A DNA stretch of 64,000 nt from Nitrosopumilaceae archaeon (GTDB lineage: Archaea; Thermoproteota; Nitrososphaeria; Nitrososphaerales; Nitrosopumilaceae), in assembly GCA_965200155.1 (NCBI GenBank), contig CBDATR010000034.1, positions 64,001 to 128,000 on the forward strand, in the 5' to 3' direction. Below, piece by piece: positions 10,412 to 47,880 of the stretch. Within the stretch, counting starts at the first letter, position 1; every line of letters begins with the position of its first letter. The position numbers and the translations under genes were made by a program. The notes beneath the pieces are model-generated. The model saw only the letters and a program-made list of their open reading frames with translations, did no database searches and was not told the origin of the DNA.

Positions 10412-11114
10412 TCAATAGTACGAAAAGTAAGTCCGCTCAGGATCCGGTGTACAGTAGCTGACTATTTCATTGCACAAGCCATATGGTAAAGAGAATAACA
10501 GAGGAATCAAGACAAAAGAGGCGTTGCCACAACCAACATAGCTCAAGACCTGAAACAAGACACGTACGAAGATTGTGAACCAGAGAACGGGGACGACTCG
10601 AGTAAAGATGGCAGGCCCATGATACCAATCACCGCCATCCAGATACGAATGGTGACTGAAGCATAAAGCAAGGATCCCGCCGGAGTAGTACATATTGCAA
10701 AGAGGCTTAGACATGATATATATCGCGCAGTATATCGCATAATGAAAAAGAACGGTACAGCAGGATCATCACCTGCAAAGTCAGAGTGAGTACGATATGA
10801 GCGTAAATATTCCAATGCAATGTGGCACTGGCATGCCATGAAAGATGAGCGCTTCAGGGGACTGAATCTCATAGATGATGCATCCAGGTGTATAGTCGGA
10901 GCGGCACTATTTGAGCATGCAACATGAGAACGCCGCCCTATTACTGAGACGTATGAGTTCACCTGTGTCTAAATGGAACGGGTCATTCTATAACTGATCG
11001 CGACAGTTAAAGAGTAACCGGTTCTTTTGTGCACAAGATTGGAACCGGTTCCAAGACGTGAACTCATACAGCTGTACACCGGATCCTAAGCGGACTTACT
11101 TTTCGTACTATTGA
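10412..11114 (+). mobile_element. Element with ~43-bp TIR (TCAATAGTACGAAAAGTAAGTCCGC...) carrying an IS481-like integrase remnant
   Basis: Inverted repeats 10412-10454 and 11072-11114 (1 mismatch); internal VRYERKYSNAMWH, IDDASRCI. Confidence 0.75.
10951..11069. mobile_element. MITE-1 variant B with three palindromic replacements
   Basis: TIR; inserts at 10975-10989, 11011-11025, 11041-11052. Confidence 0.9.
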
Positions 11115-11150
11115 AGAGTCGCTCAGCCAATACAATATACTAATACTTGG

Positions 11151-14100
11151 GTGGGAATCATCCCAGGAATAGTGGAAACTTTTGATCAAGCATTAGCAAG
11201 GCTACGTGCGGAGACCGATGATGAAAAGGATATCAGCCGCAAGGGCAGTAAAGTTAGCAAGACTGAACGCGGTGTCCGATTTGAGAAACTAATGCTACAC
11301 TACTTCAAGAATGACAGCATATACAAGAATGAGTTCAAGGAAGTAAAACTATTCCATGACTGGTATCGTGAACCGGACATTGGAATTGATCTGGTTGCCA
11401 GAGACAAGGATGACAAGTTAGTTGGCATTCAGTGCAAGTGCTGGAATGATGATTCCAGTATCCACGAGAATCAGATCTCAAACATGTTTGTCGTAAAGGA
11501 GAGCAAAAAGATGGACAGACTCATTCTTGTATTCACAGGGGCGCACGTAAGCAGGAATATTGTAAAACCGTTCGAAGAATCCGGTTACCCAATACTCATG
11601 AAGGCTGATCTCCGCCAGAGTGGGATTGACTGGAGTGGAATAGAGAGAGTAGTGAAACCAAAGACATTACAAGATCACCAGAAGGAAGCAGTTCAAAGAG
11701 TAGTCACCGGACTACAGGGTGCAGATCGTGGTCAGCTCATCATGGCATGTGGAACTGGCAAGACCATAACATCACTCCATATCGCAGAAACCATTCCAGG
11801 GAAAGATGGTCTTGTTCTATACTTGGTACCGTCAATATCACTGATACCGCAGGCGATGAGAGAGTGGGCAGATAACCGTTCCATAGAACATCAGTACATG
11901 GCAGTGTGCTCTGACAAGTCGTCCGGTACAGATGAGGCAGGTTCCATCACTGAGTGTCCCATACAACCATCCACAGATGTGGAAACGATAAAGGAGCAAC
12001 TACATTCTATGGAGAACCGAAAAGGTATGCATGTCATATTTTCCACGTATAATTCAGTGGAGCGTGTGGGAAAAGCCATACGGGACAGAAATGATATATT
12101 TGATCTAATTCTATTCGATGAGGCCCACCGCACCACTGGCGCCGAGAAAATCAAGGAATCCTATTACTTGACTGCACACAAGAATAGCGAGGTTCCAGCC
12201 AAGAAGCGACTCTACATGACTGCCACCCCACGTGTATATACAGGAAAGGGTAGAAAGGATGCCACGGATCAAGGACTGGAAGTATACTCCATGGATAATG
12301 AGAAATATGGCGATGTACTATATGACTTACCATTCTCAAAAGCGGTCGATATTGGACTACTCACACCTTTCAAAATAATACTACCAGAGGTTGATGAGAC
12401 TGATGCGTATGGTGAAATCATCAAGGCTGCAAGGGAACATGGTGATGATCTCAAGGATTACGAGGATATGGACATAGACTACATGTCAAAAGTGAACAGT
12501 ATCTGTAAGGCGATCACATATGATGGTGATAGTAATGAATTCCGGCCCTTACAACGGGTGATGGTATTCTTCAACACCATAAAAGCGTCAAAGTTGTTCT
12601 CCAATCATGGCAGGAACATGGACAAGGCAAAGAAACAACTCAAGCTTGATAAAATCACAAAGGAAACATTAAGCTTTGATAATTTAAGCGAGAGACTACT
12701 AAAGACTGATCCCGATCTGGACGGTTACAAGACTGTAACGAGGCATGTTGATGGCTCTACCAACTCACTGGACAGGGGAGCGCGGATAGACTGGTTACGA
12801 AATAGTGATAGTGATCCAAAGGAGATTCGTATACTCAGTAATGCCAGGTGCTTGCAGGAGGGCGTGGACGTTCCAGCCTTGGATGCTGTTGTATTCATGG
12901 AGCCCAAGAACTCACCCATCGACATAATACAAAGTATTGGTAGAGTAATGCGAAAATCAGAGGGAAAGAAAACAGGTTACGTTATAGTCCCCATCCCAGT
13001 CTTGAAGGGTGATGATCCACATCATGTGTTGAAAAGGAACACACGGTACGAGCAGATAAGCAAGATATTACGTGCGATCACAGCACATGATGATGGACTG
13101 CAAAAGCTACTGAATCAGTATATACTGTCCAAGTCAGGAAAGAGTGGTAAACATGAGCCACCGGATCCGTCAGAAATACCACCAAGACTGAATGACTGGA
13201 TTATTCGTACACTAGGGGCAGGACTCAGTGACAAGTTGTTAAAGGATGTACAGAATGTCATACTGAGTCTTGGCGATGCCAGTTACCACGCCAACATGGG
13301 CAAGCGACTAGGGGAGCAAGCCGTAATAATAGAGACCAAACTGAAACAGCGAATCAAAATTGAGCCGGAAACTGCGCCCATCATTGAACAATTACACGAG
13401 AACCTGAAACATATAGTCGGATTCACGTTGACATATGAGCAGACCATTCGTGCATTATCACAGCACGCTGTAATGTCCAGAGTATTCAATGTAATGTTCC
13501 CCAAGAATGCTAACCCGGTGGCATCAGCATTCGATAATACCATGCAACGATTAAACATACAGGGACAACTAGAACAGTTCGAGGCATTCTATACTGGTAT
13601 ACAGGCGGACATTGAACTATTCAAGGAGCCGGATGCCAAGCAGGATTTCCTGCGCGCCATATATGACGCATTCTTCATTGGCTCGGATAAAAAGTCCGCG
13701 GACAAACATGGAATCGTACACACACCAGTTGAAATCGTTAACTTCATACTGGAATCAGTTAGACATGTACTAGAATCGGAGTTCGGAAAGACATTCAATG
13801 ATAGAGCAGTAAAGGTGCTGGACCCGTTCACCGGTACCGGGATATTCCTTGCCCAGTTAATAGAGCGAGGAATGATCAGTGATGATGCACTACCTGACAA
13901 GTACCAGAATGATATTTACGCGAATGAAATAATGTTGCCGGCATTCTATGTTGCCATGTCCAATATTGAGGCATCATATCAGAAAATGATGGGTGAATAC
14001 ACACCATTTGGCGGGATATCATACCTGGATACATTCACACAGCACCCCTCATACAGGCTGGATGCCGAACAGCGTAAGGAGCAGATCAAGATTACAGATG

Positions 14101-15344
14101 ATTCCCTGGAGGAAGCCATGACTAGGGTGAAACGGCAGAACATGGATTACGTCAATGTCATAGTGGGGAATCCGCCATATAGTGGCGGTCAGAAGACGGC
14201 CAATGAGGATAACAAGAATGTCTCGCATCCGTATCTGGGAGATAGTGTGTCAAAGACATACATCAAAAACGCGCCCAAAGGGAACACTAGAGGGTTATAC
14301 AACTCCTACATCAAGGCCCTCCGCTGGGTATCAGAAAGAATAGGTGATTCCGGAGTTATCGGTTTAATCACACCATCCGCATATATCACTGGGAATAGTG
14401 AAGCTGGTATACGCGCCTGTCTTGGAATGGAGTTCACGGATGTCTACTGTTTCAATTTACGAGGTGATGTAAAGGGTAAACAGGATTGGAGACGAGAGGG
14501 CGGCAAGATATTTGGGAGTGGCTCAACTGTGGGCACCGCTATAACCATACTAGTCAAGAACCCGGCCAAACAATCTTGCACCATCCACTACCACGACATT
14601 GGTGATTATCTGGACAGAGATAAGAAACTAGAAAAGATAAAAGAATACGGCTCCATCGCCGGAATACAAGACTGGCAAATTATAACACCAGACCGTTATC
14701 ATGACTGGTTGGAACAGCGTGGTGATACCAGTGAACGATGGGATTCCATGACTTCAATGGGAAGTAAAGAGGGAAAACGTGGTAAGACCAATGATGTAAT
14801 GTTTGAGATGTATTCCCGGGGGATCGTTTCATCCAGAGATCCATGGGCATATAACTCACACATTGAAAAATTGGGAAATAATATGAAGCGACACATCAAC
14901 TATTGTAATAAACAGGACTTGGATAATTTTTTGGTTGATCCAAAACAGGCGAAAAAGAATAGCTCCATGATAGAACGTATGAAAAAGTTGGGCAGAAAGG
15001 TGGACTTTGATAAGAATAAAATACGTACAGCATTGTATAGACCATTTTTCAAGCAGTACCTATACTCTGATCCAATATTCATTGAGGCTGATTACCACAT
15101 CCCATCATTCTACCCACACCCCGACTCAAAGAATCATTCTATTATGGTGCCGGACAAGATCAAGGACGAGTTCTCTACGTTCATCACGGATATCACGCCT
15201 GACCTTCACATCCACGAGGCATCCCAATGCTTTCCCATGAGAGTCAAGAAACAAAAGGACAAGAATAGACATGTGGTAGGTAGCCAGTCAGCCAGTCAGC
15301 CAGTCAGCCAGTCAGCCAGTCAGCCATCGAGAACCTGGCGATAA
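11151..15344 (+). CDS. Type ISP restriction-modification enzyme (Mrr-like nuclease, SF2 ATPase, N6-MTase, partial TRD)
   Basis: DIGIDLVA..QCK, MACGTGKT, DEAH, QSIGRVMR, LDPFTGTG, GNPPY; LlaGI/LlaBIII domain order. Confidence 0.92.
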   Translation: MGIIPGIVETFDQALARLRAETDDEKDISRKGSKVSKTERGVRFEKLMLHYFKNDSIYKNEFKEVKLFHDWYREPDIGIDLVARDKDDKLVGIQCKCWNDDSSIHENQISNMFVVKESKKMDRLILVFTGAHVSRNIVKPFEESGYPILMKADLRQSGIDWSGIERVVKPKTLQDHQKEAVQRVVTGLQGADRGQLIMACGTGKTITSLHIAETIPGKDGLVLYLVPSISLIPQAMREWADNRSIEHQYMAVCSDKSSGTDEAGSITECPIQPSTDVETIKEQLHSMENRKGMHVIFSTYNSVERVGKAIRDRNDIFDLILFDEAHRTTGAEKIKESYYLTAHKNSEVPAKKRLYMTATPRVYTGKGRKDATDQGLEVYSMDNEKYGDVLYDLPFSKAVDIGLLTPFKIILPEVDETDAYGEIIKAAREHGDDLKDYEDMDIDYMSKVNSICKAITYDGDSNEFRPLQRVMVFFNTIKASKLFSNHGRNMDKAKKQLKLDKITKETLSFDNLSERLLKTDPDLDGYKTVTRHVDGSTNSLDRGARIDWLRNSDSDPKEIRILSNARCLQEGVDVPALDAVVFMEPKNSPIDIIQSIGRVMRKSEGKKTGYVIVPIPVLKGDDPHHVLKRNTRYEQISKILRAITAHDDGLQKLLNQYILSKSGKSGKHEPPDPSEIPPRLNDWIIRTLGAGLSDKLLKDVQNVILSLGDASYHANMGKRLGEQAVIIETKLKQRIKIEPETAPIIEQLHENLKHIVGFTLTYEQTIRALSQHAVMSRVFNVMFPKNANPVASAFDNTMQRLNIQGQLEQFEAFYTGIQADIELFKEPDAKQDFLRAIYDAFFIGSDKKSADKHGIVHTPVEIVNFILESVRHVLESEFGKTFNDRAVKVLDPFTGTGIFLAQLIERGMISDDALPDKYQNDIYANEIMLPAFYVAMSNIEASYQKMMGEYTPFGGISYLDTFTQHPSYRLDAEQRKEQIKITDDSLEEAMTRVKRQNMDYVNVIVGNPPYSGGQKTANEDNKNVSHPYLGDSVSKTYIKNAPKGNTRGLYNSYIKALRWVSERIGDSGVIGLITPSAYITGNSEAGIRACLGMEFTDVYCFNLRGDVKGKQDWRREGGKIFGSGSTVGTAITILVKNPAKQSCTIHYHDIGDYLDRDKKLEKIKEYGSIAGIQDWQIITPDRYHDWLEQRGDTSERWDSMTSMGSKEGKRGKTNDVMFEMYSRGIVSSRDPWAYNSHIEKLGNNMKRHINYCNKQDLDNFLVDPKQAKKNSSMIERMKKLGRKVDFDKNKIRTALYRPFFKQYLYSDPIFIEADYHIPSFYPHPDSKNHSIMVPDKIKDEFSTFITDITPDLHIHEASQCFPMRVKKQKDKNRHVVGSQSASQPVSQSASQPSRTWR
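15282..15326 (+). repeat. Tandem repeat (AGCCAGTC)5 + AGCCA
   Basis: 45-bp perfect tract inside the 3' end of the ISP gene. Confidence 0.97.
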
Positions 15345-15469
15345 TAGTTCCCTACAAGATCAAGGGCGAATTCTCAGTATTCATAACCAATGCACCACCG
15401 GATCTACAAGTGATAACCAACGGGCAGGTATTCCCCATGTTCACACAGTCACCGGAGGTGACGAGATGA
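15332..15469 (+). other. Second, currently out-of-frame TRD cassette
   Basis: NLAIIVPYKIKGEFSVFITNAPPDLQVITNGQVFPM, 20/36 identical to 15132-15239; ends in TGA overlapping ATG 15466. Confidence 0.85.
15454..15461 (+). promoter_or_regulatory. Shine-Dalgarno site for the ISP C-terminal subunit
   Basis: GGAGGTGA just upstream of ATG 15466. Confidence 0.7.
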
Positions 15470-16134
15470 AGGACAACATCACTGACTACTCCCTGGAACT
15501 ATACCAGAAACGATATAATGATGACTCCATAACTAAAGAGGACATCTTCTACTATACCTATGGCATCCTACATCATAATGGTTATCGTTCCAAGTATCAA
15601 GTATTCCTAGTTAGAGGATTGCCGAATATTCCTATGGCGCCCGATTTCCACTCATTCATGAAAGCAGGTAGACAGCTAGCTGACTTGCATCTCAATTATG
15701 AGACCGGCCCCCGTTACAACCTGGGCGAGCCGCTGGTTCCAATACCTGACGCTCCCGAAAAAATAGCCTTTGGTAAGAAACCTAATGACGGTCCCGGACC
15801 AAAGGGAATAGTTGATCAATCCAAACTACTACTGGATAACGTGTTAGTATACGATAACATACCAACAATCCATTACTCAGTCAATGGTAGAACGCCTGTA
15901 GGATGGTTCGTTGACAGATACAAGTATCGTTCCAATGCAGAGAGTGGCATCACGAATTATCCACTAGAGGGTGTGAATGGTGACATGGTACGCGCCATAA
16001 TAGAGCGGTTGGTCTATGTGGGAATAGCGTCAGACAGGATCATAGACCAACTACCAGAACAGTTCGAAATGGAATCATCATTGCAACCAGAACCAACCGG
16101 CCTGGATAAGTACTACAAGGCGCCTATTCCCTAG
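15466..16134 (+). CDS. Type ISP C-terminal specificity-domain subunit (separate ORF)
   Basis: DNITD, ITKEDIFYYTYGILH, GRQLADLHLNYE, YSVNGRTPVGW. Confidence 0.88.
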   Translation: MKDNITDYSLELYQKRYNDDSITKEDIFYYTYGILHHNGYRSKYQVFLVRGLPNIPMAPDFHSFMKAGRQLADLHLNYETGPRYNLGEPLVPIPDAPEKIAFGKKPNDGPGPKGIVDQSKLLLDNVLVYDNIPTIHYSVNGRTPVGWFVDRYKYRSNAESGITNYPLEGVNGDMVRAIIERLVYVGIASDRIIDQLPEQFEMESSLQPEPTGLDKYYKAPIP

Positions 16135-16364
16135 AATATTTGTCTAGCGTATATGGGGCGCTGTTAAGAAGTCAGTACATAGAGAATAGTGTTAACATGA
16201 GTTGGAATGATCAGTCTTTTGAAGCGTTCCGTATTATAGTAAGGCACTTGAAAATTTAACTCACTAGGTAACCGGCATAAGGAGTCGCGGCATTCTGGAT
16301 AGTCATAAGGAGCAGTGACAGTGGGGCGGGGCGTCATAAGGAGCATGGCGGATATGTGATCAAT

Positions 16365-16456
16365 GTGTGAGTTCACCTGTGTCTAAATTTACGCATAACT
16401 GATCGCGACAGTTAATGTGATTTGTGCATAAGATTCCGGAAGACGTGAACTCATAC
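16365..16456. mobile_element. MITE-1 variant B
   Basis: TIR; TSD TGATCAAT. Confidence 0.95.
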
Positions 16457-16547
16457 TGATCAATAGTAAGCCCAGGGGCGTATGACATATGGATATCATC
16501 ATAAGAGCAGGTAGTACTAATATAGCATATAATATCAGATATGTAGT

Positions 16548-16787
16548 ATGGGCAGGCAGAAGTTACCGTTCAGGCGGTCAAATGAGTATAAGGAGTGTAT
16601 TGCACTGAGATGTACTAAGTGGCAAAGACAGCGACTGGATGACATGCGCCAGATATGTAACATGTCCATAAGCGAATATCTCAGGTTTCTTATAGAGTCA
16701 ATAGAAGTGCAGGTAACTAAGGAGGTTAAAGAACCGCCCAAAAAGGAATCAAGACCACGCATGACAAGGAATGGCCATTTTATCTAA
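16548..16787 (+). CDS. Putative ribbon-helix-helix DNA-binding protein
   Basis: IALRC..QRQRLD...MSISEYLRFLI pattern; AT-rich upstream. Confidence 0.5.
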   Translation: MGRQKLPFRRSNEYKECIALRCTKWQRQRLDDMRQICNMSISEYLRFLIESIEVQVTKEVKEPPKKESRPRMTRNGHFI

Positions 16788-17291
16788 GATGTATAACAAA
16801 ATTGGTTCAATGGGAAGGATCTAGGTAATAGTAAGCACAAATTGCAAATTGGTATAAGCAGTAAAGAGGGGAATATACTAGGTGTATGTATGGATCGCGC
16901 TGGAAAAAAATTTCAACTCAGAAATCTATGTGCATAAGTTCATGTTAATCATTAGTTTATTTTGTGCATAAGTCCTTGCCCACAGGGTCAATTTGAATCA
17001 CATAGCTGTAATATTCGCGTTAAGCCGTCCAAGTTTGTATATAGAATTTTTCAGAAAATAAACCGATATGGTCTTTAACAGGTCAATAGTAGGTAGTATA
17101 ATGAAACAAGTTAGTCTGTGCTGCACGACATATGATACCCATTCCATGCTCGTGGCGCTGGCAAATAGTAGACCGTATGCGCAGAATCACTTCTCCCACC
17201 CTGCACGTCTAAACCAAGTTGTTAGATACGAGCAATTGACCTAATATCATGGGTTTTCCCACACAGACTCGTGTGAAACAGAAAAGTTAAG

Positions 17292-17383
17292 GTATGAGTT
17301 CACGTCTTCCGGAATCTTGTGCACAAATCACATTAACTGTCGCGATCAGTTGTGCGTAAATTTAGACACAGGTGAACTCATAC
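17292..17383. mobile_element. MITE-1 variant B
   Basis: TIR; TSD AAGTTAAG. Confidence 0.95.
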
Positions 17384-17412
17384 AAGTTAAGACCTAATTT
17401 TGTAGTACCAGG

Positions 17413-18296: not shown

Positions 18297-19991
18297 GTAT
18301 GAGTTCACGTGTTTTGATCACATAATAATATAGAATACATCCCAGTTTTTTTAATTATAACTGCATTCTGGCAGCAACCTCGTTCATTACAGAAAGGCCT
18401 TGAGCCCTCCATGTCTGAACACATGATACAAATGTAGACATGCGGCGCATTGCCCTTTCGCCACCCTTTATCTGACCACTAATCTTGCGGAATACCACTG
18501 CGTATCGCAAAGCCTGCTCCGCTGGATTGTTGGTGGGCTCTACACTGTCATATTCTAAGAATACGAACATGCCTGGTATGGCCTTATTCAATCCTTTTAC
18601 CTTCTTTTGTAGTTCAGTATCATCAACATCACAGTACTGATGCAGAATGGATTCTGCTCCTGTCTCAAATGAGTGTCGTAATTGCGCGGACGGCCCGCAG
18701 TGATTCAGGGATTCCCGTGCGCTCCGGAACAATCCTTTCAGGTCGTTGTCAAGTTTGATCCGGGCGTCCTGAGCACCGGGATCGATATAGAATCCTGCAT
18801 GTAATGCCTGGGTATCGCGCAATAAATGCGCCCAACACAACTGGTGCTTCCCACCGTCATCAAACCGGCGGTACACAACGTACCTGTCCGTTACTATCGC
18901 TCCCTGGTAACCGTTCAGGTATTTGTTCACTACATTTGAACTCCTACTTTTGTCATATATGGACATCATCCACTCTTCGGCTCGCATCCCCCATACCCAG
19001 CCACGCCTACCCGCCAGTGATATACCAGTTTCGTCCACATGAATGCTGGGTGATTTTATTATATTTTCATGAATTGTTTCCATAAATGATTCACATGCAT
19101 CGGCGGCCCTGGCAATTATGTTGTTTACCGCACCCACAGATATATTCAGGCCGAAGAGATCCTTCGAAATTACAGGTATGCGTTTTATTGGAATCTTTTC
19201 TGCGCGTAATGCAGTGATGGCACCGCATAATTGAACCCCAAAACTACCACTCTTTGGGACGCCCGCTGCTGGGGCCAGTTGTTTTTTGCCGCACTTGCAT
19301 GCAGCCATTTCTATCACATGAAGGGTCTCCTCTATTTTGGCTGGTATTAATTCCGTTATGTGTCGTTGTTTCCAACCAATTTTTGTCATCATATTGCCGC
19401 ACTCACATATTGGTGTGTACTCAAAGGTGTGATGCACTACTCTGCCGGGGTTGTGGGAACGGGAAACCCCCTTGTGTCCCTTTTGAGCGCCAGCCTTTTT
19501 GGCTGATTTCGTACTGGCTTCTGTCTGTTGCTTATTATCTCCCTGTTTTCGCTTCTGCTCCTCCTGTTTTCGCTTCTTGTACTGGAGGGATTGAAGGGAT
19601 GGTGGCGAGTGAGCATTCTCATAATATTTAAGTCGCGTTGTGAGTACCGCAATTTTCCTGTCTTTTTCTTCTAATTTCTCATTCAATTCACTTACATAAT
19701 TCCTAATAATTTGGAAATCTTGTGTGAGATTTCGTATTTCTTTTGTGGTGTGTGACACATATGCTTCCAATACTCTCACACGTTCCTTGTAATGTGCAAG
19801 ATCTTTCTTGTAATCCTCAATATCTTTCTTGATAGACGCAAGGGTATCCTGAAGAAGTTTATTTTCCAGTTCCAATTCCTTATAGGACCGGCGTCTTCTC
19901 ATTAGATTCTTATTGCAAATTTGGTATTTAAGTAAAATATTGCCATACCAATCTATATCTTAGTGAATGATCAAAACACGTGAACTCATAC
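18297..19991 (-). mobile_element. IS66-family element (single-ORF, ISBst12-like), apparently intact
   Basis: 24-bp perfect TIR GTATGAGTTCACGTGTTTTGATCA around the transposase. Confidence 0.92.
18355..19902 (-). CDS. IS66 transposase
   Basis: Coiled coil, Zn finger, IHVDETG, TDRY, QLCWAHLLR, PTNNPAEQALR. Confidence 0.93.
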   Translation of the reverse strand: MRRRRSYKELELENKLLQDTLASIKKDIEDYKKDLAHYKERVRVLEAYVSHTTKEIRNLTQDFQIIRNYVSELNEKLEEKDRKIAVLTTRLKYYENAHSPPSLQSLQYKKRKQEEQKRKQGDNKQQTEASTKSAKKAGAQKGHKGVSRSHNPGRVVHHTFEYTPICECGNMMTKIGWKQRHITELIPAKIEETLHVIEMAACKCGKKQLAPAAGVPKSGSFGVQLCGAITALRAEKIPIKRIPVISKDLFGLNISVGAVNNIIARAADACESFMETIHENIIKSPSIHVDETGISLAGRRGWVWGMRAEEWMMSIYDKSRSSNVVNKYLNGYQGAIVTDRYVVYRRFDDGGKHQLCWAHLLRDTQALHAGFYIDPGAQDARIKLDNDLKGLFRSARESLNHCGPSAQLRHSFETGAESILHQYCDVDDTELQKKVKGLNKAIPGMFVFLEYDSVEPTNNPAEQALRYAVVFRKISGQIKGGERAMRRMSTFVSCVQTWRAQGLSVMNEVAARMQL

Positions 19992-20667: not shown

Positions 20668-21557
20668 GCCGATGCATGTGAATCATTTATGGAAACAATT
20701 CATGAAAATATAATAAAATCACCCAGCATTCATGTGGACGAAACTGGTATATCACTGGCGGGTAGGCGTGGTTGGGTATGGGGGATGCGGGCCGAAGAGT
20801 GGATGATATACAAAAGTAGGAGTTCAAATGTAGTGAACAAATACCTTAACGGTTACCAGGGAGCGATAGTAACGGACAGGTACGTTGTGTATCGCCGGTT
20901 TGATGACGGTGGGAAGCACCATCTGGGCGCATTTATTGCGCGATACCAGTATTTACATGCAGGATTCTATATTGATCCCGGTGCTCAGGACGCCCGGATC
21001 AAACTTGACAACGATTTGATCCGGAGCGCACGTGAATCGCTGCGGGCCGTCCGCGCAATTACGACACTCATTTGAGACAGGAGCAGATGCATCAGTACTG
21101 TGATGTTGATGATACTGAACTACAAAAGAAGGTAAAAGGATTGAATAAGGCCATACCATGTATGTTCGTATTCTTAGAATATGACTGTGTAGAGCCCACC
21201 AACAATCCAGCGGAGCAGTGGAACCGGTTCTGATACGCAGTGGTATTCCGCAAGATTAGTGGCCAGATAAAGGGTGGTGAAAGGGCCATGCGCAGAATGT
21301 CCACATGCGTTCAGACATGGAGGGCTCAGGGCCTTTCTGTAATGAACGAGGTTGTTGCCAGAATGCAGTTATAATTAAAAAACTGGGATGCATTCTATCT
21401 TATTATGTGATCAAAACACGTGAACTCATACACAAATTATTCCAATAAAAATTATTCAAATTCTACCCGCATTTATGTACTACAGATGGTCATCACGTAG
21501 TGATAACAGTCCTGCTGTGTAATTTGTGCACGAGATTGGCGAATATATCCTATCACA

Positions 21558-37309: not shown

Positions 37310-37760
37310 CAATGAACCGTTCCATGCGCGAGAACCGGGTAGGCGAGTTCCGCCGGAAAGTAGTACAAAAGTGCGAGGCACTGGGGATTGAATTGATATT
37401 TGTGCCAGCGAAATACACGAGGGGGCGGTTTACCCGCCCAACGGTATGAGTTCACCTGTGTCTAAATTTACGCATAACTGATCGCGACCGTTAATGTGAT
37501 TTGTGCATAAGATTCCGGAAGACGTGAACTCATACGCCCAACGAGCCAGACCTGTCATGCGTGCGGGCACCATTCCAAGGATTCTAGATTAACCAGGGAC
37601 ACTTTCAATATGTAACCAGTAATTTCACGCCGATATCAACGCGGCGTTTAGTAACCGGTTTCCCTGTGTGGGGCGGCAGAGCGTGTCGTCCGGGAGGCGG
37701 GGAACAGTTCCCCGCCCAACCGGAGGCGTCAGGGCGGGAATAATGGTGACAAGCCAAAGC
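37310..37760 (+). pseudogene. tnpB: TnpB C-terminal remnant
   Basis: VPAKYTSQTCHACG (after removing inserts), HADINAA. Confidence 0.8.
37444..37535. mobile_element. MITE-1 variant B
   Basis: TIR; TSD GCCCAACG. Confidence 0.95.
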
Positions 37761-37838
37761 CATGTACTGTCCGGGAACGAGATGCCATGTTCTCAAAGAC
37801 TTATGGTGACCACTGTATGCCAACTTCCACACAATAGG

Positions 37839-39083
37839 AGTTTGTTGCATAACTGACTTTGACAGAATACAGGTTCCCCATGTCGTAATCTACGTTACTG
37901 CCGCGTCCGCCCACTCGTTGCACTCGTATGTTATCCCATTTCCGCGCCATTAATCCGTGCCCGAATAATCGTTTGAACGGGAACCGGCTCTGATTATCTC
38001 GATTATCCATCGCCTGTTGTACCCTTTTGCCGCCTTCCAGTACTGCTTGTTTTCGGCCTTTTCCTCATCAGAAAGGCGGAAAATGGGCGATTCCGGGCTT
38101 CCTCCAAGACTGCAAGTCCCCATGAGTCGCCTTTCCTTTGGTGGAATTTAGCTGAAGTGGAATGGTTGTCCGGATTCGATTATCACTGCACAATTTCATG
38201 TTATCCCTGGACGCGTATGCGCCATCTGCAAGCAACTCGAGGTTGCATGCGCGCTTCTCATCATTATTCAGTAAGAGGGACACACCGTTAGTCAGCGCCT
38301 TTCCGGGTTGTGGCTTATCTGTTGGTCCTGCCAGGGATGGCAACTGTTGCAATGGGTCCGGAACTTTCCAATTCCAGGGTGATCAAGTATAGGTGTGTTA
38401 TTACAGCGGGCCATAATGTTGCAATGGGTCCGGAACTTTCCAATTCCAGGGTGTGCTCCCTGTCCAGTTGTGGCTCTTCTGCATACGAGTCCAGTACTGC
38501 ATTGTTTAACATGCGCGTATCCCCAACCCACTCGCCGGTAACCGTAAATGCATATGCTCTCCCAGTCCGCGAGCATTGATGAATCCGCGCCTCTTTTTCC
38601 ATTTGGTTCTAATCCACTCGCCACGATTCAAGGCCGGTCGAGTTAACAATCATGGTTCTAGTTAGCTTTTTGTCTGTGCCGACAATCATACCATTCCCCT
38701 TCTATGTCAAGATCTTTTCCGCGTCTGTAGTGGAGTAGTGCGGGGTTTGGTGTCCTTCCAGTAGTCCTGCAAGGAATCCGGATACCTGCCTGTATCTCAT
38801 ACCTAATGCCGTTCTCAGTGTCATGTAACATGTCCACGACATACCGGTAGGGAGCACCCTCCTTTATGGTTGGCCTTTTCAATCCCATACATGATCAAAG
38901 CCAAATAGCCTTCCGCTGGACGTACTTGCATTGTCGGTGAATACCATCAAGTTTGTTTAAAATATCTCAGATATTAATGCTTGGATCCAAGTTAGTAATC
39001 ACTATGACAGAATAAACGAAAATACTCAAACCGTTTCTCACATACATTTTTGATCTAACTTGTTTGGAGTTATACAACAAAGT
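37839..39083 (-). mobile_element. IS5 (IS903-group) element, decayed
   Basis: IS903-like ends GAGTTTGTTGCATAACT / AGTTATACAACAAAG; fragments VTGEWVGD, ADGAYASRDN, FKRLFG. Confidence 0.75.
38345..38453. CRISPR. Repeat-insert-repeat unit (37-35-37 bp), CRISPR-like
   Basis: Perfect 37-bp repeats 38345-38381 and 38417-38453; minus strand ends CCCATTGCAAC(A) with internal hairpin; no cas genes in window. Confidence 0.45.
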
Positions 39084-39122
39084 ACACAATAGTTAATATT
39101 TACATGCACTAGAGCGAATAGC

Positions 39123-39311: not shown

Positions 39312-39501
39312 GGAGATAATACTGGTGCACATATCAAACGCGCTAACCGTATATGCTATAGGCCGCGCGGAGAATCGCATACCGGTCCATACCACACCGC
39401 ACCAGTTTGTCTATGATTCCATTCCGGAGAAATTCCGGCCCAATCTTGGTGCGGACTTGATAGACGAGATATTTGCAGCTATCCAAACGGTTCATAAATA
39501 G
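39295..39501 (+). CDS. Small hypothetical protein
   Basis: 68-aa ORF co-oriented with and directly before purP. Confidence 0.6.
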   Translation: MPLTDREIILVHISNALTVYAIGRAENRIPVHTTPHQFVYDSIPEKFRPNLGADLIDEIFAAIQTVHK

Positions 39502-39523
39502 CGCCCAAATGCAATATTTTGGT

Positions 39524-40540: not shown

Positions 40541-41335
40541 GGCAGTCTGCTTATCTATACCGCGCTGCGACTTTACTACGTATAGGTCACGAAGTTTCGT
40601 ACTAATGAAATCTATCACAAGTACCAGAACCAGCACCACAAGCATAAAGAATGCTGCCTTGCCATACTCAAAGAACCTGATATGCGTAATTATGTAGAAT
40701 CCAATCCCCCCTGCCCCCACGATTCCCAGTATACTGGACTGCCTGACGTTATAGTCGAACATGTACAACAGGTGGCCTAAAAGGTGGGACGCGGACTCGG
40801 GTATTACCACGTGCCTTATCATCTGCAGTTTCGACAGTCCGATGGAACCTGCTGCATCCATTGGTTCCACATCTATGGACTCTATTGACTCATACTGCAT
40901 CTTTGCCACAAAGCCTACCGTATACATGATTATTGCAAGTATCCCAGCAAAGGGGCTGGGGCCCACCATTATGACGAATAGCAGCGCCCACAGTATGGCG
41001 GGAAACATTCGGAGGGCGGCCAGCAACATGCGCATGGGGGCGTACACCCACTTGCCCATAACGTTGCGGGATGCCAAGAGACCCATGGGCAGTGCTATGC
41101 CATATCCCACCACGGTTCCTACAAATGCCATCTGTACGGTCTCCAGCATGGACCACAGTGCGCGCTCCAGCATTCTTTGGTCTACTTCCTGTAGCTCTTC
41201 TACTATCTCGTCCATGACCAATGCCAAATTGGGCAGGCCTTCCACAAACTCCTGGGGACTGGCCTCCATGTTCCATGATATGGCAATTACTGCTGCGACT
41301 ATGACTGCTATGGTGATGTTAGTCTTGGGGGTCAT
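40520..41335 (-). CDS. phnE: Phosphonate ABC transporter permease
   Basis: FDYNVRQSSILGIVGAGGIG. Confidence 0.92.
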   Translation of the reverse strand: MTPKTNITIAVIVAAVIAISWNMEASPQEFVEGLPNLALVMDEIVEELQEVDQRMLERALWSMLETVQMAFVGTVVGYGIALPMGLLASRNVMGKWVYAPMRMLLAALRMFPAILWALLFVIMVGPSPFAGILAIIMYTVGFVAKMQYESIESIDVEPMDAAGSIGLSKLQMIRHVVIPESASHLLGHLLYMFDYNVRQSSILGIVGAGGIGFYIITHIRFFEYGKAAFFMLVVLVLVLVIDFISTKLRDLYVVKSQRGIDKQTASGGHHI

Positions 41336-42101
41336 TGTACATTTCCATTATCTCTTGAGTGGTACAGTTGCCTGTATGAAATGATGTTATTCTCCTGTCA
41401 CACAATCCAAGCTCCATAACCTTCTTGCCATGCTGTATGAGCGCAACATGGTCCGCAAACTCCAGAGCCAGATCCACGTTATGGTGTATCATGACGGCTG
41501 TAAGCTCGCTCCCCTTCTGGATCTCCGCTACTAGACTCATCACTTCCCGGGCGGTCTTGTCGTCCAGTTCAGAAAGCATCTCGTCGGCGAGCAGAATAGT
41601 CGGCCTCTGCATGAATGCCCTGGCAATAGCGACCCTTCTCTTCTCGCCGCCACTGAGCATGTACACCTTGCGATACTCCTTGCCTGACAATCCAACCTGC
41701 TCCAGTATCTCCAGTGCGCGTTCAGTCTCCTCTGCCGGATAGCGCTTGATAAGCGAGTCTAACTTTTTCATGCGGGGCAGCGCCCCTATCATTACGTTAT
41801 CAAAGACGGTGGAATTGCGCACCAAGCCCAGGTGTTGTGGTATGTATCCTATGTGGGACATCACCGATCTAAACCTGCGACTGCCCTGGTCCGGAGTGTG
41901 ACCGTCCACCGCTATACTGCCCTTGTACGGCATCATGAGTCCGTTCATAAGCTTGAGGAGGGTGGATTTGCCGGATCCTGAAGTACCCACTATGGCATAG
42001 TTGGAATTTTTCTTTATATCCATATTTATCTCCTGCAGTATTATGCTTTTCTTGTTGTAAGATGCCCAGACATCATTCATGCGAATTATGCTATCCGGCA
42101 T
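41319..42101 (-). CDS. phnC: Phosphonate ABC transporter ATPase
   Basis: GTSGSGKST, LSGGE, LLADE. Confidence 0.9.
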   Translation of the reverse strand: MPDSIIRMNDVWASYNKKSIILQEINMDIKKNSNYAIVGTSGSGKSTLLKLMNGLMMPYKGSIAVDGHTPDQGSRRFRSVMSHIGYIPQHLGLVRNSTVFDNVMIGALPRMKKLDSLIKRYPAEETERALEILEQVGLSGKEYRKVYMLSGGEKRRVAIARAFMQRPTILLADEMLSELDDKTAREVMSLVAEIQKGSELTAVMIHHNVDLALEFADHVALIQHGKKVMELGLCDRRITSFHTGNCTTQEIMEMYNDPQD

Positions 42102-42320
42102 ATCTTGGGACTAGAGTGGCTAAATATATAACAAATGTTTCATGGAGAATTAAATTTTCTGAGATATGCCTGTCATAATGTTGCGTAATTAATTTGCGCA
42201 ATGTTCGCGCAATGTATTACAACTATTCATATAGTAATTGGAAAGACGTGAACTCTATTTGTATTCCACAATTGTAGAATTATATTTTATAATTATGTTA
42301 ACGAGGCACAAAAAAAAACA

Positions 42321-43382
42321 CTATCTAAAGTCCTTTTTGTCCAGGATAAGTTGATCAAGACCGATCAAGTTGTCAATGTATTCACCAAAGTTGCCAATGT
42401 GCAGTGATGTAGTTGTGGGCAATAGTGCCTGTGCACCATAGAGGTCACGAAGTATCTGGTTGTAATCATCATTGTTGAGACCTATCATGGCATCTACAAG
42501 GGCCTGGCGCGTACCACTACTCATCTCGTCACTTACAACAAATACGTGCGATGGAACAGGGCCCAGAACTGCCGCTTTCCGCACCATTCCCTGCTCTTCT
42601 GGTTCCAGATACAGTTGGGGTGCGATGTCTGAACCAAAGGCCACATCCACATTCCCTGCTATCAAAAGTGCCAATGCCTGCGAATAGCCACCAGCAAAGG
42701 TATGCTGCTCAAAAGCATCATTTACTGCCTCGTTCAATGCTATAACGTCATCACCATTTATGGTTACATGACCCTCGCTTACCAGTGTACCAAAGGGTCT
42801 AACAAATCCCGATGATCCAGTCTGGCTGGTGAAAGCCACTTTCTTGCCCAGCGTATCCTCGATGGAATTGATATCCGTGTTGTCGGCTCTTACCCAGACT
42901 GTTGCATCATAACTGATACTGCCATCCCTCTTGACCTCTGCCATGACCACATCGGCTCCTGTTCTGGTATGTGCAATCCATCCGGGTCCTGTATCCATGA
43001 ATGCCGCATCAACGTGCCCGAATCGTAATCCCTCTATAATGGTTTCATAGTTGCTTGGTATGATTACGTCCACCTCTACACCCAGATCCGCCTCCAGGTA
43101 TTCCTGAAGCGCGGCAGCTCCTGCCGCTAGATCATCGGCCTTCTCTACGGGTATGAACCCGATGGTTATTGCGTCCGCATCTACTAGCGGATACTGGATT
43201 ATGTTGGCATTTACAAGATACTCTATGGCTCCGGTGAATTCCTCGTCCGTAGCACTGCCACTTGCCCACTCTCCGGCGATAACCCTTATCCAGTCCGGTA
43301 TTGCGGCTTCAGCGGATTGCATGGCTAGCGGTGCACCCATGAGCGTAATTGCTGCAATTATTGCTAATGTTACTTTAATCAT
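42321..43382 (-). CDS. phnD: Phosphonate/phosphite ABC substrate-binding protein
   Basis: Signal peptide, IPDWIR..W thaumarchaeal N-domain, PhnD-like SQTGSSG. Confidence 0.88.
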   Translation of the reverse strand: MIKVTLAIIAAITLMGAPLAMQSAEAAIPDWIRVIAGEWASGSATDEEFTGAIEYLVNANIIQYPLVDADAITIGFIPVEKADDLAAGAAALQEYLEADLGVEVDVIIPSNYETIIEGLRFGHVDAAFMDTGPGWIAHTRTGADVVMAEVKRDGSISYDATVWVRADNTDINSIEDTLGKKVAFTSQTGSSGFVRPFGTLVSEGHVTINGDDVIALNEAVNDAFEQHTFAGGYSQALALLIAGNVDVAFGSDIAPQLYLEPEEQGMVRKAAVLGPVPSHVFVVSDEMSSGTRQALVDAMIGLNNDDYNQILRDLYGAQALLPTTTSLHIGNFGEYIDNLIGLDQLILDKKDFR

Positions 43383-43470
43383 TAAACACCGCCTGAATAT
43401 AATTTGTATATTAACATAACCACAATTTTAAATTGATAAAATGCAATTAAGTAATAAAAGCAAAAAATAT

Positions 43471-43562
43471 GTATGAGTTCACGTCTTCCGGAATTTTATG
43501 CACAAATCACATTAACTGTCGCGATCAGTTATGCGTAAATTTAGACATAGGTGAACTCACAC
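43471..43562. mobile_element. MITE-1 variant B
   Basis: TIR; TSD AAAAATAT. Confidence 0.95.
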
Positions 43563-43745
43563 AAAAATATTACTTTGTGATGAGCAATTAATTTTTGGAC
43601 ACGTTATACCAAAAATACTGGATATTGTACAAATAGGCTTGTAAAATAACCAAGTTAAATGATCATGCACAAAATCTACACATATGGGTTTGCCTACAAA
43701 TGAGTAACAGCTTAGGTTATACGTGGATAGCCGTTTAAAATACAT

Positions 43746-43846
43746 GTATGAGTTCACCTGTGTCTAAATTTACGCATAACTGATGGAACAGGTTGTTCTA
43801 GTTAATGTGATTTGTGCATAAGATTCCGGAAGACGTGAACTCATAC
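43746..43846. mobile_element. MITE-1 variant A
   Basis: TIR; TSD AAATACAT/AAATGCAT. Confidence 0.92.
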
Positions 43847-43915
43847 AAATGCATCACTAGCATACAATTATTGTCCTTTCTATCATAATACCTCATGTAT
43901 GGATGTCTACGCGAC

Positions 43916-44332
43916 CTATAGCGGCCACCATAAGTCTTTGGGCGACTAATTTGATCAAAATATCACAATTATCACAGGCTTATTTGCGCGCCCCCAGGGG
44001 GTGGTTAATTTGGCATGTTAATATGGTATTATGTACAGCTAAATATGGTACTTTGAAGCAAGATAAAAGTTAAAAACTTGGATCTTATATACTAGTATAA
44101 TGGATCGCGCCCAACAATTACACCAAATTCAGGCAAGCTAGGGATCCGGGCAAATTGCGCGCCGACTGGGTATGCTGATATTATGTATGAGTTCACCTGT
44201 GTCTAAATTTAAGCACAACTGATGGAACAGGTTGTTCTAGTTAATGTGATTTGTGCACAAGATTCCGGAAGACGTGAACTCATACGATATTATTGCTGAA
44301 TATGCAGCTTAATTTTGCGGAAGCCGCCATAA
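43916..44332. mobile_element. MITE-3-like element with nested MITE-1
   Basis: CTATAGCGGCCACCATAAG left end; degenerate right end. Confidence 0.45.
44185..44285. mobile_element. MITE-1 variant A
   Basis: TIR; TSD GATATTAT. Confidence 0.95.
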
Positions 44333-44339
44333 AGTATCA

Positions 44340-44610
44340 GTGTGATACGCACTGTCATAACGTGGTATAACCGGTTACGGCAGGGTGGTAATGATACAGC
44401 GGGAATCAGAGACTGACAAGCCCAGATCAGCTCGCCCCACGAAAATAAAGCGAGAACAGCTGGAGAGGGCCCGTTTATGGGCGCAAAGCCACGTATTCAT
44501 CACCAGGATTACCTCGAAGAGATATCCGGAATAAGACTGAGCGCAAATCAGGCTCAAGCGTTACGCCAAAAAGTGTGGTTGCTCCAACAAAAAGTCATCG
44601 CTCATCAAGG
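44340..44610 (+). pseudogene. IS630-like transposase HTH remnant
   Basis: WYNRLRQG, RSARPTKI, LEEISGIRLS fragments. Confidence 0.45.
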
Positions 44611-44711
44611 GTATGAGTTCACGTCTTCCGGAATCTTGTGCACAAATCACATTAACTAGAACAACCTGTTCCATCAGTTGTGCGTAAATTTAGACACAGG
44701 TGAACTCATAC
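44611..44711. mobile_element. MITE-1 variant A
   Basis: TIR; no TSD. Confidence 0.9.
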
Positions 44712-44839
44712 AAATGCCCTGTGATGTGCAGATTTTAAGCAAGGCAAGCATTGTGTGCATTCGCGCCTTCCCCGGTCTTGTACACAAATCATTTTGACAT
44801 GGGCGAAATCATACGGACAAATAATCGCCGTACATGCGG

Positions 44840-47413
44840 TTATTGCAGTGCCGCCTGTGCCGCGGCTACCGTAGCTATTGGTATTCGATGAGGTGATGCG
44901 CTAACATAATTCAGGTCCAGTCCGTGGCAGAAGCGTACCGAGTCCGGGTCCCCGCCATGCTCGCCGCATATTCCTATCTCCATATCCGGCCTCACCGTTC
45001 TACCGCTGGATGTGCCCATCTTCATTAACTGGCCCACCCCGGATATATCTAGGGTCTGGAAGGGGTTTCGTTCCAGTATGTGTTTTTCCATGTATTCGGG
45101 AAGGAACTTACCTTCCGCATCCTCTCTGCTGAAAGAGTATGTGGCTTGCGTCAAATCATTGGTACCAAAACTAAAGAACTCGGCGGTTCCTGCCAGCTCA
45201 TTCGCGGTGAGGGCTCCTCGCACTACCTCTATCATGGTTCCAAAGTTCACGGTAATGGTGTCATACTGCGACTTTACAGAGTCGTATATGGCCTTGATAT
45301 GGTCCAGCTCCTGTATGCTGCCTACCTGAGGTATCATTATCTGGGGTATGGCCTTTATGCCCCGCCCCTTGAGGATGGATGCCGCCTCGAATACTGCACG
45401 AATCTGGGTTTCATAAATTTGTGGATATGTTATTCCCACCCTGACGCCCCGGTGGCCCATCATGGGGTTTACCTCTGCTAACTCCTTGGCCCTGGTGGCA
45501 ACGGGATCATCATACGGCGGCTGGGGCTCCGGCAGGAATTCGTGTAGTGGCGGATCAAGTAGCCGTATGGTAACGGGGTATCCTTCCATGGCTTCCAGTA
45601 TCTGTACAAAGTCGTCCCGCTGAAGCTTCTGTAGTGATGCCAGAATGGTTTGGCGCTCGTTATCATTTCTGGCCATTATCATATCAACAAACAGACCTAT
45701 GCGGTCCTCCGCGTTGAACATGCGCTCGGTACGGCACAACCCTATGCCTTCGGCGCCATACTGGCGGGCCAGTTTTGCAGCCTGGGGGGTGTCCGCGTTG
45801 GCGCGTATTCCGAGCCTCTTGGATCCTCTGGCCCACTGCAACACGGTCTGAAAGTCGCTGGTTATCTCCGGCTGAATGGTGGGCACAACGCCCTGGAATA
45901 TGTTACCGGTGGCCCCGTCTATGGTTATGTATTCGCCCTCTTTTATGGTGAGGCTTCCGTTGGTGAACTGTTGCGCCTTGTAATCAATGTGAATGCTGGT
46001 GCACCCCACTATGCAGGGTAATCCCTGTCCCCTGGCCACTACCGCAGCATGGGATGTCTTGCCCCCCCGGCTGGTAAGTATGCCCACTGATGCAAAGAAT
46101 GCAGGTACATCCTCCGGCTTGGTCTCCTCCCGTACCAGAATTATATTCTTGCCCTCCTCGCCGTATGCCAGGGCCCGCTTAACGTCAAATACGGCAATTC
46201 CGGATGCGGCTCCGGGTGAGGCTGCTATTCCCTGAGCCAAAAGTGTGTGCTTTTTGGAGGCTTCTGTATTTATGCTGGGATGTAATAGTTGCTCCAGCTG
46301 CGCGGGATGCAGTCGGCGGATTGCCTGATCCCTGTCTATGAGTCCCTCCTTGACCATCTCCACTGATGTTCGTATCATGGACGCCGCGTTCATCTTGGCA
46401 TTGCGTGTCTGGAGCAGGTAGAACTTGCCCCGCTCCAGGGTGAACTCTATATCCTGTGGTTCCTTGTAGTGCTTCTCCAGTATGTCACAGACATTACTCA
46501 GCTGGGTATATGCGGAGGGCAGCTCCTGCTCCATGTTGGATATGGGCTTTGGTGTCCGGGTACCGGCCACTACATCCTCGCCCTGCGCGTTTACAAGATA
46601 GTCGCCAAATATCTGGTTGGATCCATCTCCGGGATTTCTGGTGAATACCACACCGGTGGCCGAGTCATTTCCCATATTTCCAAATACCATGGATACAACA
46701 TTGACGCCCGTACCATCGGCTATGTCCGGGGTTATGTTGTTCTTTTCCCGGTACACTATGGCACGCTCACCCATCCAGCTGTCAAAGACTGACTTTATGG
46801 CCAGCTCCAGCTGGGTATCCGGATCATCGGGAAAGTCCTGGCCTGTGTGTTTTTTGCACACTTCCTTGTACTGCTCTATTATGATATGCAGGGATGCCTC
46901 GTTCAGGTCCCCGTCCAGTGTGACGCCCTGGCGCCTCTTTTGCCCGTCCAGTATCTCATCGAACAGAGTATCGTCTACGCCAAAGACCACCTTGCCGAAG
47001 AGCTGCACGAATCTGCGATACGAGTCCAGGGCAAAGCGCATGTTGCCGCTCTGCGAGGCCAATCCCTGTACGGTATAATCATTTAAGCCCAGATTCAGTA
47101 TTGTATCCATCATGCCGGGCATTGATATGGCGGCGCCGGATCTTACAGAAACCAGTAACGGATTTGTATCAGACTTCCATTCCTTGCCGGTCTTTTGAGC
47201 TATGCGGGTTATCATCTCCAGTACTGAATCCATAATTTGTGGTGGCAGGACGCGACCATTATTGTAATATTCCTTGCATACGGTGGTGGTTATGACAAAA
47301 CCCGGAGGAACAGGCAGGTTCAGGGATGTCATCTCACAAAGCCCGGCACCCTTGCCGCCAAGTATCTTGCGGCTTACACCGTGACCCTCGTCATAAAAAT
47401 AGACCGGCTTCAT
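44840..47413 (-). CDS. ppdK: Pyruvate phosphate dikinase
   Basis: LGGKGA, SVRSGA, TSHAAVVARG, GIGLCRTE, FGTNDL. Confidence 0.97.
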   Translation of the reverse strand: MKPVYFYDEGHGVSRKILGGKGAGLCEMTSLNLPVPPGFVITTTVCKEYYNNGRVLPPQIMDSVLEMITRIAQKTGKEWKSDTNPLLVSVRSGAAISMPGMMDTILNLGLNDYTVQGLASQSGNMRFALDSYRRFVQLFGKVVFGVDDTLFDEILDGQKRRQGVTLDGDLNEASLHIIIEQYKEVCKKHTGQDFPDDPDTQLELAIKSVFDSWMGERAIVYREKNNITPDIADGTGVNVVSMVFGNMGNDSATGVVFTRNPGDGSNQIFGDYLVNAQGEDVVAGTRTPKPISNMEQELPSAYTQLSNVCDILEKHYKEPQDIEFTLERGKFYLLQTRNAKMNAASMIRTSVEMVKEGLIDRDQAIRRLHPAQLEQLLHPSINTEASKKHTLLAQGIAASPGAASGIAVFDVKRALAYGEEGKNIILVREETKPEDVPAFFASVGILTSRGGKTSHAAVVARGQGLPCIVGCTSIHIDYKAQQFTNGSLTIKEGEYITIDGATGNIFQGVVPTIQPEITSDFQTVLQWARGSKRLGIRANADTPQAAKLARQYGAEGIGLCRTERMFNAEDRIGLFVDMIMARNDNERQTILASLQKLQRDDFVQILEAMEGYPVTIRLLDPPLHEFLPEPQPPYDDPVATRAKELAEVNPMMGHRGVRVGITYPQIYETQIRAVFEAASILKGRGIKAIPQIMIPQVGSIQELDHIKAIYDSVKSQYDTITVNFGTMIEVVRGALTANELAGTAEFFSFGTNDLTQATYSFSREDAEGKFLPEYMEKHILERNPFQTLDISGVGQLMKMGTSSGRTVRPDMEIGICGEHGGDPDSVRFCHGLDLNYVSASPHRIPIATVAAAQAALQ

Positions 47414-47465
47414 CAGGAATAGGTCTTTTCATGAGGCTATTTTAAAGCATTGCAACTATCATGGG

Positions 47466-47599
47466 GTAACCGCTCAGGTCACCCCTGGACAACCGCCTAA
47501 AATACACCGCGGGTATGCCCATTCTTTTTCATAATGTCTCAAATATGCCTATGATTTTACCGTCTGGATGTTTATGGTTAACGCGACCTAAACGGTTAC
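47466..47599. mobile_element. MITE-2 subfamily a
   Basis: TIR; reverse complement similar to 24116-24258. Confidence 0.8.
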
Positions 47600-47609
47600 C
47601 ATTCATGAG

Positions 47610-47880
47610 GTAACCGCCCGGCTCACTCTTCCATATATGGCATAGACTGAATCCTGCTATTCTACTAGTATGACAAGGCAGCGCCGGACACGTCAGGACT
47701 GGCGGGAGGTAATTCCATACCGGATTTTGTACCCTGAAAACACGCCACAATTCGGGGCGACCTAAACGGTTGTATGAGTTCACGTCTTCCGGAATCTTAT
47801 GCACAAAAGAACCGGTTCTTTAACTGTCGCGATCAGTTATGCGTAAATTTAGACACAGGTGAAATCATACAAACGGTTAC
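47610..47880. mobile_element. MITE-2 subfamily b with MITE-1 in its right TIR
   Basis: TIR; interior similar to 24956-25231. Confidence 0.8.
47772..47870. mobile_element. MITE-1 variant B with AGAACCGGTTCT replacement
   Basis: TIR; TSD AAACGGTT. Confidence 0.95.

Follow-up and report, generated by a model that had tools for sequence, protein, structure and literature searches.

How does one short palindrome come to stand, in place of a few unrelated bases, in several unrelated mobile elements of a single archaeon? The question is raised by a window of 64,000 nucleotides (positions 64001-128000 of contig C34) from the genome of a Nitrosopumilaceae archaeon, which is available as 2.38 Mb in 51 contigs at 87.6% completeness, a value that limits all genome-wide searches for genes and elements described here. 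In this window, copies of a miniature inverted-repeat transposable element (MITE-1), of its IS66-type partner, an insertion sequence (IS), and of an IS carrying only TnpB differ from other copies by small palindromes, which we call stamps. Public sequencing runs containing the stretch carry the label sponge metagenome. The stamp pattern is real, confined to this lineage and unusual. Its sites in the window are inherited subfamily markers found genome-wide, and template switching between hairpins is, we infer, most likely the step that placed a stamp at a new site.

Results and Discussion

The core palindrome GAACCGGTTC was found 113 times in the genome, 110 times with a purine (R) before and a pyrimidine (Y) after it, against expected counts of 1.3, 3.0 and 6.1 for Markov models of order 1, 3 and 5. 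By count it ranks second among the 10-letter palindromes of the genome. Three matches of RGAACCGGTTCY in the window compare with 0.01 expected, and none out of 100 shuffles reached three. The 12-mer form occurs in 0-2 copies per genome in 40 relatives, MITE-1 being absent from all 40 relatives searched, and none of 400 further genomes from the phylum has more than 10 copies of the 10-mer; the one genome with 10 copies also contains 10 of the control word. The sequence-only reading, made before this work, had proposed the enrichment as a check, and the palindrome passes it clearly. It had also described the palindrome as fixed, which has to be corrected: the stamps are a family of 10-15 nt with conserved arms, RGAAC/GTTCY or GTAAC/GTTAC, and variable centres (CG, C, GCC, AACCT, TGACCC). 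The outer base of each arm is A or G, varying independently. No description of such stamps in archaea was found in the literature, as represented by listings and the opening lines of abstracts.

Contigs from four runs of three studies span the triple-stamped MITE-1 copy at 10951-11069, and a 230-nt contig of run X5 is identical to 10879-11108 with no differences. Runs X6 and X3 also carry a form shorter by 3 nt at 11013, corresponding to the predicted intermediate. Since the stamps are present in contigs from the runs of three studies, they are not an artefact of library or assembly, a possibility that had been raised with the first description; they are also inherited within subfamilies. For these same two reasons, the resemblance of the stamps to a commercial paired-end linker was discounted.

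Ancestral and derived states were obtained by genome-wide comparison of repeat copies, events in MITE-1 (lettered A to H) being given in the orientation of the MITE (Table 1). This is a rare case in which both states can be read from hundreds of copies in one genome. All sites listed in the sequence-only reading were located, including 12 copies of the variant-A stamp, and its count of at least six distinct sites rises to at least seven at which 4-7 bp were exchanged for 10-15 bp, five of them within one element of 92 nt (MITE-1, of which the genome has about 560-580 copies). Replacement without target duplication, with a small loss of target and in several unrelated hosts, holds across copies: no event shows a duplication, and 4-7 target bases are missing wherever the ancestral state is known. 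The proposed pairs of ancestral and derived sequence are borne out by the comparison except for details at three positions. The site at 11011 is stamped, in two steps instead of one. The stamp at 37701 is present, and either state may be the ancestral one; the stamped form is in the majority: the TTTA loop is GGAACCGTTC-like in about 24 of 27 copies of the TnpB IS, counted by eye from the alignment. At 54665 the reading GCTTTGC was wrong by one base.

Table 1. Stamped and unstamped sites in the window, with the replacement events of MITE-1.
Feature	Position	Strand	Sequence or replacement	Occurrence or context
Form F MITE-1 copy (119 nt), from the heavily stamped lineage	10951-11069	-		
Stamp D	10975-10989		GCGTAA > AGAATGACCCGTTCC; + strand GGAACGGGTCATTCT	15 genomic copies
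Stamp B plus step F	11011-11025		TCACA > AGAACCGGTTCT > AGAACCGGTTACTCT (+3 nt; event F, ACT added to right arm of B); reads AGAGTAACCGGTTCT	
Stamp E	11041-11052		CCGG > GGAACCGGTTCC	8 genomic copies; CCGG is the centre of native palindrome TTCCGGAA
IS66-frame stamp	21219-21231	+	GCTTTGC > TGGAACCGGTTCT	
IS66 site, ancestral	18507-18513	-	GCTTTGC	in intact 515-aa transposase gene 18355-19902
IS66 site, unstamped	54665-54671	+	GCTCTGC	class of 4 copies
TnpB-IS stamp	37701-37711	+	GGAACAGTTCC	tip of G+C-rich hairpin; 3' non-coding part of TnpB-only IS fragment 37539-37817
TnpB-IS hairpin, unstamped	37421-37439	+	loop TTTA	second partial fragment
MITE-1 copy, form B, 99 nt	47772-47870	+	event B, TCACA > AGAACCGGTTCT, at 47808-47819	
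MITE-1 copies, form A (12)	span 3108-56426		event A, GTCGCG > AGAACAACCTGTTCC	centre of AACTGTCGCGATCAGTT; stamp starts 3108, 9735, 10100, 25085, 29402, 36380, 43785, 44224, 44658, 54304, 54593, 56412
Event C			TCGCG > GTAACCGGTTCT	
Event G			G > TAGT	left arm of B
Event H			CGGT (inside E) > GTAACCGGTTAC	

In IS66, the intact frame encodes AEQALRYAVVFRK within its match to PF03050 (residues 230-479 of 515), and the stamp turns AEQ-ALR into AEQ-WNRF-stop. Because the intact frame reads through PF03050 and the stamped frame meets a stop, the stamp is the derived state. The approximately 68 IS66-type copies of the genome comprise 35 with TGGAACCGGTTCT, three with GT for GG and 30 that are intact. 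The TnpB-IS copy at 37701 is a point variant of GGAACCGTTCC; the unstamped hairpin occurs in two more copies elsewhere in the genome, which holds about 26 TnpB-only ISs.

Six repeat contexts account for 109 of the 113 copies of GAACCGGTTC. They are MITE-1 site B (48 copies and one variant at C42:2240, counted as a B variant), the transposase frame of IS66 (38), MITE-1 site E (8), a loop of the Type ISP restriction-modification gene (6), a second MITE of about 250 nt, MITE-2 (5), and a further IS with about 28 genomic copies, fam5 (3). MITE-2, found at G000:C5:38775-39060 and at four other places, has inverted ends of about 24 nt and long internal inverted repeats; GGGAACCGGTTCT stands near its centre and all five copies are stamped. 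The polarity of the Type ISP site cannot be read because homologues from four other genomes vary in loop length, and both this site and that in fam5 may be native sequence. Related palindromes are fixed in at least 23 copies of an IS of about 950 nt with 86 genomic copies, IS#3 (AGAACGCCGTTCT), and found in the fam5 IS (GGAACCGGCTCT). The four remaining copies of GAACCGGTTC are u1 and u3, in ordinary reading frames of unique sequence and at chance level; u2, in a fragment that ends in a MITE-1-type terminus and has another palindrome, GTAACCGGTTAT, at a distance of about 35 nt; and u4, where about 6 nt gave way to 13 nt in a fam5 IS copy that has diverged. No stamps beyond chance level were found in unique DNA.

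Multiplication and Exchange of Stamped Copies

Transposition multiplied the stamp-bearing subfamilies of MITE-1 and IS66 by ordinary amplification. Among 561 classified MITE-1 copies, 422 have the base form, 68 form A, 37 form B and 19 form C; the rest carry B+D (4), D alone (1), B+D+E (1), or the latter with the successive additions of F (5), G (2) and H (2). Neither private stamps nor singleton insertions were found among the 422 base copies, and the stamps thus mark subfamilies instead of continual hits on resident copies. As a correction to the first description, none of these events took place within the window. The origin events are few, about 8-12, almost all in the mobile DNA of one lineage.

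Descent alone does not describe the distribution of the stamps. Two flanking A/G sites define four haplotypes, and every stamp is found on all of them, in proportions roughly as in the base form. In a tree of 35 IS66 copies, the stamped ones do not form one clade; the stamp state needs at least seven changes, at least four of which are forced by well-supported branches, and about 19 of 29 stamped copies still have private variants in common. MITE pairs sharing both flanks are discordant for the stamp in 14 of 66 cases (6 groups). One of these same-flank pairs differs solely by stamp A, with a rare variant 23 nt away common to both. The simplest reading is that short-tract gene conversion carried stamps among the approximately 560 MITE-1 and 68 IS66 copies; recurrent identical stamping may instead lie behind the discordant copies.

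As a separate observation, MITE-1 positions 28 and 61 are co-varying A/G sites within an internal direct repeat. In base copies the combinations are AA (198), GG (123), GA (39) and AG (27), and the stamped subfamilies are alike in this respect. Recombination or selection for matched pairs could produce this co-variation.

Origin of the Stamps

Our best reading, held tentatively and with somewhat less than even confidence, is a switch of template from hairpin to hairpin while DNA was being replicated or repaired, with amplification coming afterwards. Synthesis would stall at one small palindrome, and the nascent strand would copy the tip of another palindrome nearby and then return, leaving few target bases lost and no duplication. 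The longer palindrome so formed would itself be a better target, so that stamps would accumulate in one lineage. Short-range template switching that makes hairpins has been described (PMC8794818, PMC7954356, both in excerpt).

The target sites point in this direction. Four of the seven are centres of clear pre-existing palindromes, namely TTCCGGAA (site E), AACTGTCGCGATCAGTT, which was hit twice (sites C and A), and GGGCGG-TTTA-CCGCCC, whose loop is occupied by the TnpB-IS stamp. A weak palindrome with 3-bp arms, AAT-CAC-ATT, has site B at its centre, and H occupies the centre of an earlier stamp; at D and in IS66 the target palindrome is less clear. The absence of any target consensus, as claimed initially, was therefore too strong a statement. 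The events are clustered replacements without duplication that create or extend an inverted repeat, as template switching would leave them. In a lineage of 14 MITE-1 copies, which took five successive changes, B and D were followed by E, F, G and H with no point changes elsewhere; step F altered one arm of stamp B and step G subsequently the other. The clearest case is form H. Here GTAACCGGTTAC, which has taken the place of CGGT at the centre of the older stamp, forms together with the next two letters a block of 14 nt identical to a stamp that the same element carries about 30 nt further downstream. With the identical block in both stamps, form H is a copy of the neighbouring palindrome.

Several findings weigh against this reading. 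H is the sole event that is demonstrably templated; for stamps A and D the assembly contains no template of at least 11 nt, their inner 11-mers occurring nowhere else. Stamp E, with G..C ends, matches no other stamp exactly, and stamps C and A originated in MITEs without other stamps. The stamps of IS66, the TnpB IS and other ISs would need templates in trans or in a neighbouring MITE. No stamp polymorphism was seen in the 86 copies of IS#3; the process thus does not affect repeats in general. Arms that stay constant around centres that vary suggest the joining of two identical ends more than copying. Finally, template switching leaves unexplained the first palindrome and the lack of a template for the 15-nt stamps A and D.

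The stamp could also be regarded as a self-propagating unit of 10-14 bp, a hairpin-tip parasite that a lineage-specific process, enzymatic or coupled to replication, would write into the tips of other hairpins. Each stamp would itself be a better target, and the unit would spread via mobile elements and disable some of them, for example by the stop in the IS66 transposase frame. We regard this as rather unlikely, though worth stating.

An unlikely origin is that of footprints or fused termini, in which an element with RGAAC../..GTTCY ends inserts with loss of target and leaves only its outermost bases. The pattern is as the sequence-only reading described it when suggesting such an element, and constant arms with variable centres, as well as the independent variation of the outer A/G, are expected for retained outer ends with a variable joint. 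The element itself did not appear. None with RGAAC..GTTCY ends was present among the internal breakpoints of all MITE-1 copies or, by analysis of flank pairs, at the IS66 site or other sites, and no interrupted MITE-1 or IS66 copy reveals one. Two scans for inverted termini returned known ISs and pairs at chance level only; the one repeated candidate, of 1102 nt on C19, C30 and C37, is a single phage-like locus and was rejected as the parent element. A known IS footprint finds no support in the termini of the resident ISs that were read, which differ from the stamp arms; this applies to three kinds of element inside MITE-1, to the TnpB IS, to the fam5 IS and to MITE-1 and IS66. No duplication accompanies any stamp, target bases are lost, and the copying of a neighbour by stamp H is left unaccounted for.

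Selection, in which GAACCGGTTC-like palindromes are putative binding sites of a host or transposon protein, kept and amplified once acquired, appears quite unlikely as the explanation. It does not supply the mutations, since a 12-nt insertion of random sequence would hardly ever produce this palindrome. Moreover, the stamped subfamilies are rarer than the base form (139 vs 422 copies) and no binding protein was identified. These points stand against the observation that every MITE-1 length variant with at least five copies is a stamped form and that similar palindromes (AGAACGCCGTTCT in IS#3, GGAACCGGCTCT in the fam5 IS) are fixed in other ISs. The stamp in IS66 truncates the transposase within the PF03050 match, and the truncated product could be a regulator.

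Very doubtful is repair by end addition, whereby both 3' ends of a break at a hairpin tip would gain an identical templated tail (..RGAACCGG); the tails would pair via their self-complementary CCGG, and fill-in would yield the palindrome. By reasoning, this route would provide palindromy, constant arms, a variable centre, target loss and the lack of duplication in one step. Against it, the centres of A and D appear incompatible with pairing through CCGG, no candidate template RNA was found, and no suitable enzyme was seen in the available genome: the single match to a reverse transcriptase is a locus broken by a stop, and there are no matches to Prim-Pol (primase-polymerase). The templated process proposed in the sequence-only reading is directly supported by the 14-nt copy in stamp H. 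The genome also gave no match to a serine resolvase. Cas1 was rejected as a candidate enzyme, being part of a Cas4-Cas1 fusion beside a large array of clustered regularly interspaced short palindromic repeats (CRISPR) with a repeat unlike the stamp. A link to TnpB was likewise dropped: the 3' region of the TnpB IS natively contains AGTAACCGGTT, which is also found in the GTAAC-type stamps, a post hoc likeness that is suggestive at best.

Least probable, and hard to hold, is that one or two chance palindromes were multiplied by transposition while the remaining cases are coincidence. In its favour, six repeat contexts take in 109 of the 113 exact copies, the two clearly unique sites u1 and u3 are in coding frames at chance level and the Type ISP and fam5 sites are possibly native. 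Against it, the same type of replacement recurs at no fewer than seven positions (five in one 92-nt element), stamps are nested within stamps, and a diverged IS copy and a MITE-1-like fragment provide more cases.

Neighbouring Elements

Some 80 nt upstream of a Type ISP restriction gene, the stamped MITE-1 copy at 10951-11069 is enclosed in a truncated IS. Type ISP genes, with Mrr nuclease, helicase, methylase and specificity domain, are present in about 12 copies in 2.4 Mb (window 11151-16134, also C9, C10, C22, C24, C42 and C43). The copies are partly mosaic and 69-92% alike, and the one in the window is interrupted between 15344 and 15466. Avoidance of restriction sites was considered as a cause of stamping and found no support: TCCGGA, TCGCGA and AAATTT are lost to stamps E, C/A and D, respectively, yet ACCGGT and TCCGGA are not avoided. 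GCCGGC is strongly avoided genome-wide, with 150 occurrences against 539 expected (ratio 0.28), which hints at a restriction system that would recognise this sequence.

The TnpB-only IS (window 37310-37817; full copy at G000:C10:38746-40290) measures 1545 nt and has inverted ends of about 24 bp with TA on both flanks. Two of its copies abut a MITE-1 end, so that the predicted guide would read into the MITE. At 37838-39084 of the window lies an IS of about 28 copies, bounded by GAGTTTGTTGCATAACT, that duplicates 8 bp of its target (CACAATAG at this site) and whose copies contain only short open frames. Copies of IS#3 (reference G000:C5:41827-42773) also differ from one another in other small, hairpin-like insertions: CGAAAGGC is present in 15 of 82, and a 21-nt palindrome, GGACTCTTATTTAAGAGTCCA, flanked by a direct repeat of about 9 nt, in two. 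Elsewhere, thirteen tandem coding repeats of 39 nt at G000:C10:386956-387440 each contain GCAGAACCGGTTGT and are unrelated to the stamps. The CRISPR array is found from about 11009 onward in locus L003 (G000:C9:60000-79999) and comprises at least 123 repeats of 36 nt with a period of about 73 nt; the adjoining Cas4-Cas1 fusion has 549 amino acids.

Significance and Comparison with Known Systems

If copying from hairpin to hairpin is the origin of the stamps, it would be a previously unlisted way for transposon subfamilies to diversify and for transposase genes to die. By seeding the same palindrome widely, it would also offer a simple, enzyme-free origin of protein-binding palindromes and RNA hairpins. 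Should a dedicated activity make the stamps, a new mechanism of writing DNA would be at hand; and the hairpin-tip parasite, if true, would be smaller than any mobile DNA described so far, or amount to a novel marking of transposons by the genome.

Unlike a MITE or a very small transposon, the stamp has neither a target duplication nor a spread over unrelated unique sites. The repetitive extragenic palindromes (REP/REPIN) and their RAYT transposases are similar in that short palindromes multiply in one genome. Here, however, the genome gave no match to a Y1 (HUH) transposase (PF01797), and the stamps, 10-15 nt long, lie inside mobile elements and reading frames and not between genes. HIP1 of cyanobacteria is likewise one short palindrome strongly over-represented in one lineage. 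It is spread genome-wide and thought to arise by substitutions. In contrast, the stamps arose by replacement insertions and 109 of 113 copies are in repeats; a HIP1-like over-representation in unique coding DNA is absent, only four copies lying outside the six repeat contexts, two of which (u2, u4) are transposon-derived.

The excision footprints of cut-and-paste transposons come closer, with a short palindromic residue, constant outer bases and a variable joint. The stamps differ from these in lacking a duplicated target on their flanks and in the loss of target bases, and the breakpoint analyses and terminus scans revealed no parent element. In known template-switch (quasi-palindrome) mutations, adjacent DNA supplies the new sequence as its reverse complement, which gives every site a hairpin of its own, whereas a near-identical palindrome stands here at unrelated sites and A and D are without a donor in the assembly. 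Similar to those mutations, the stamps are short replacements made in one step, without duplication and with a longer inverted repeat as the result; arms are corrected in turn, as in F and G, and H has been copied from a donor at a distance of about 30 nt.

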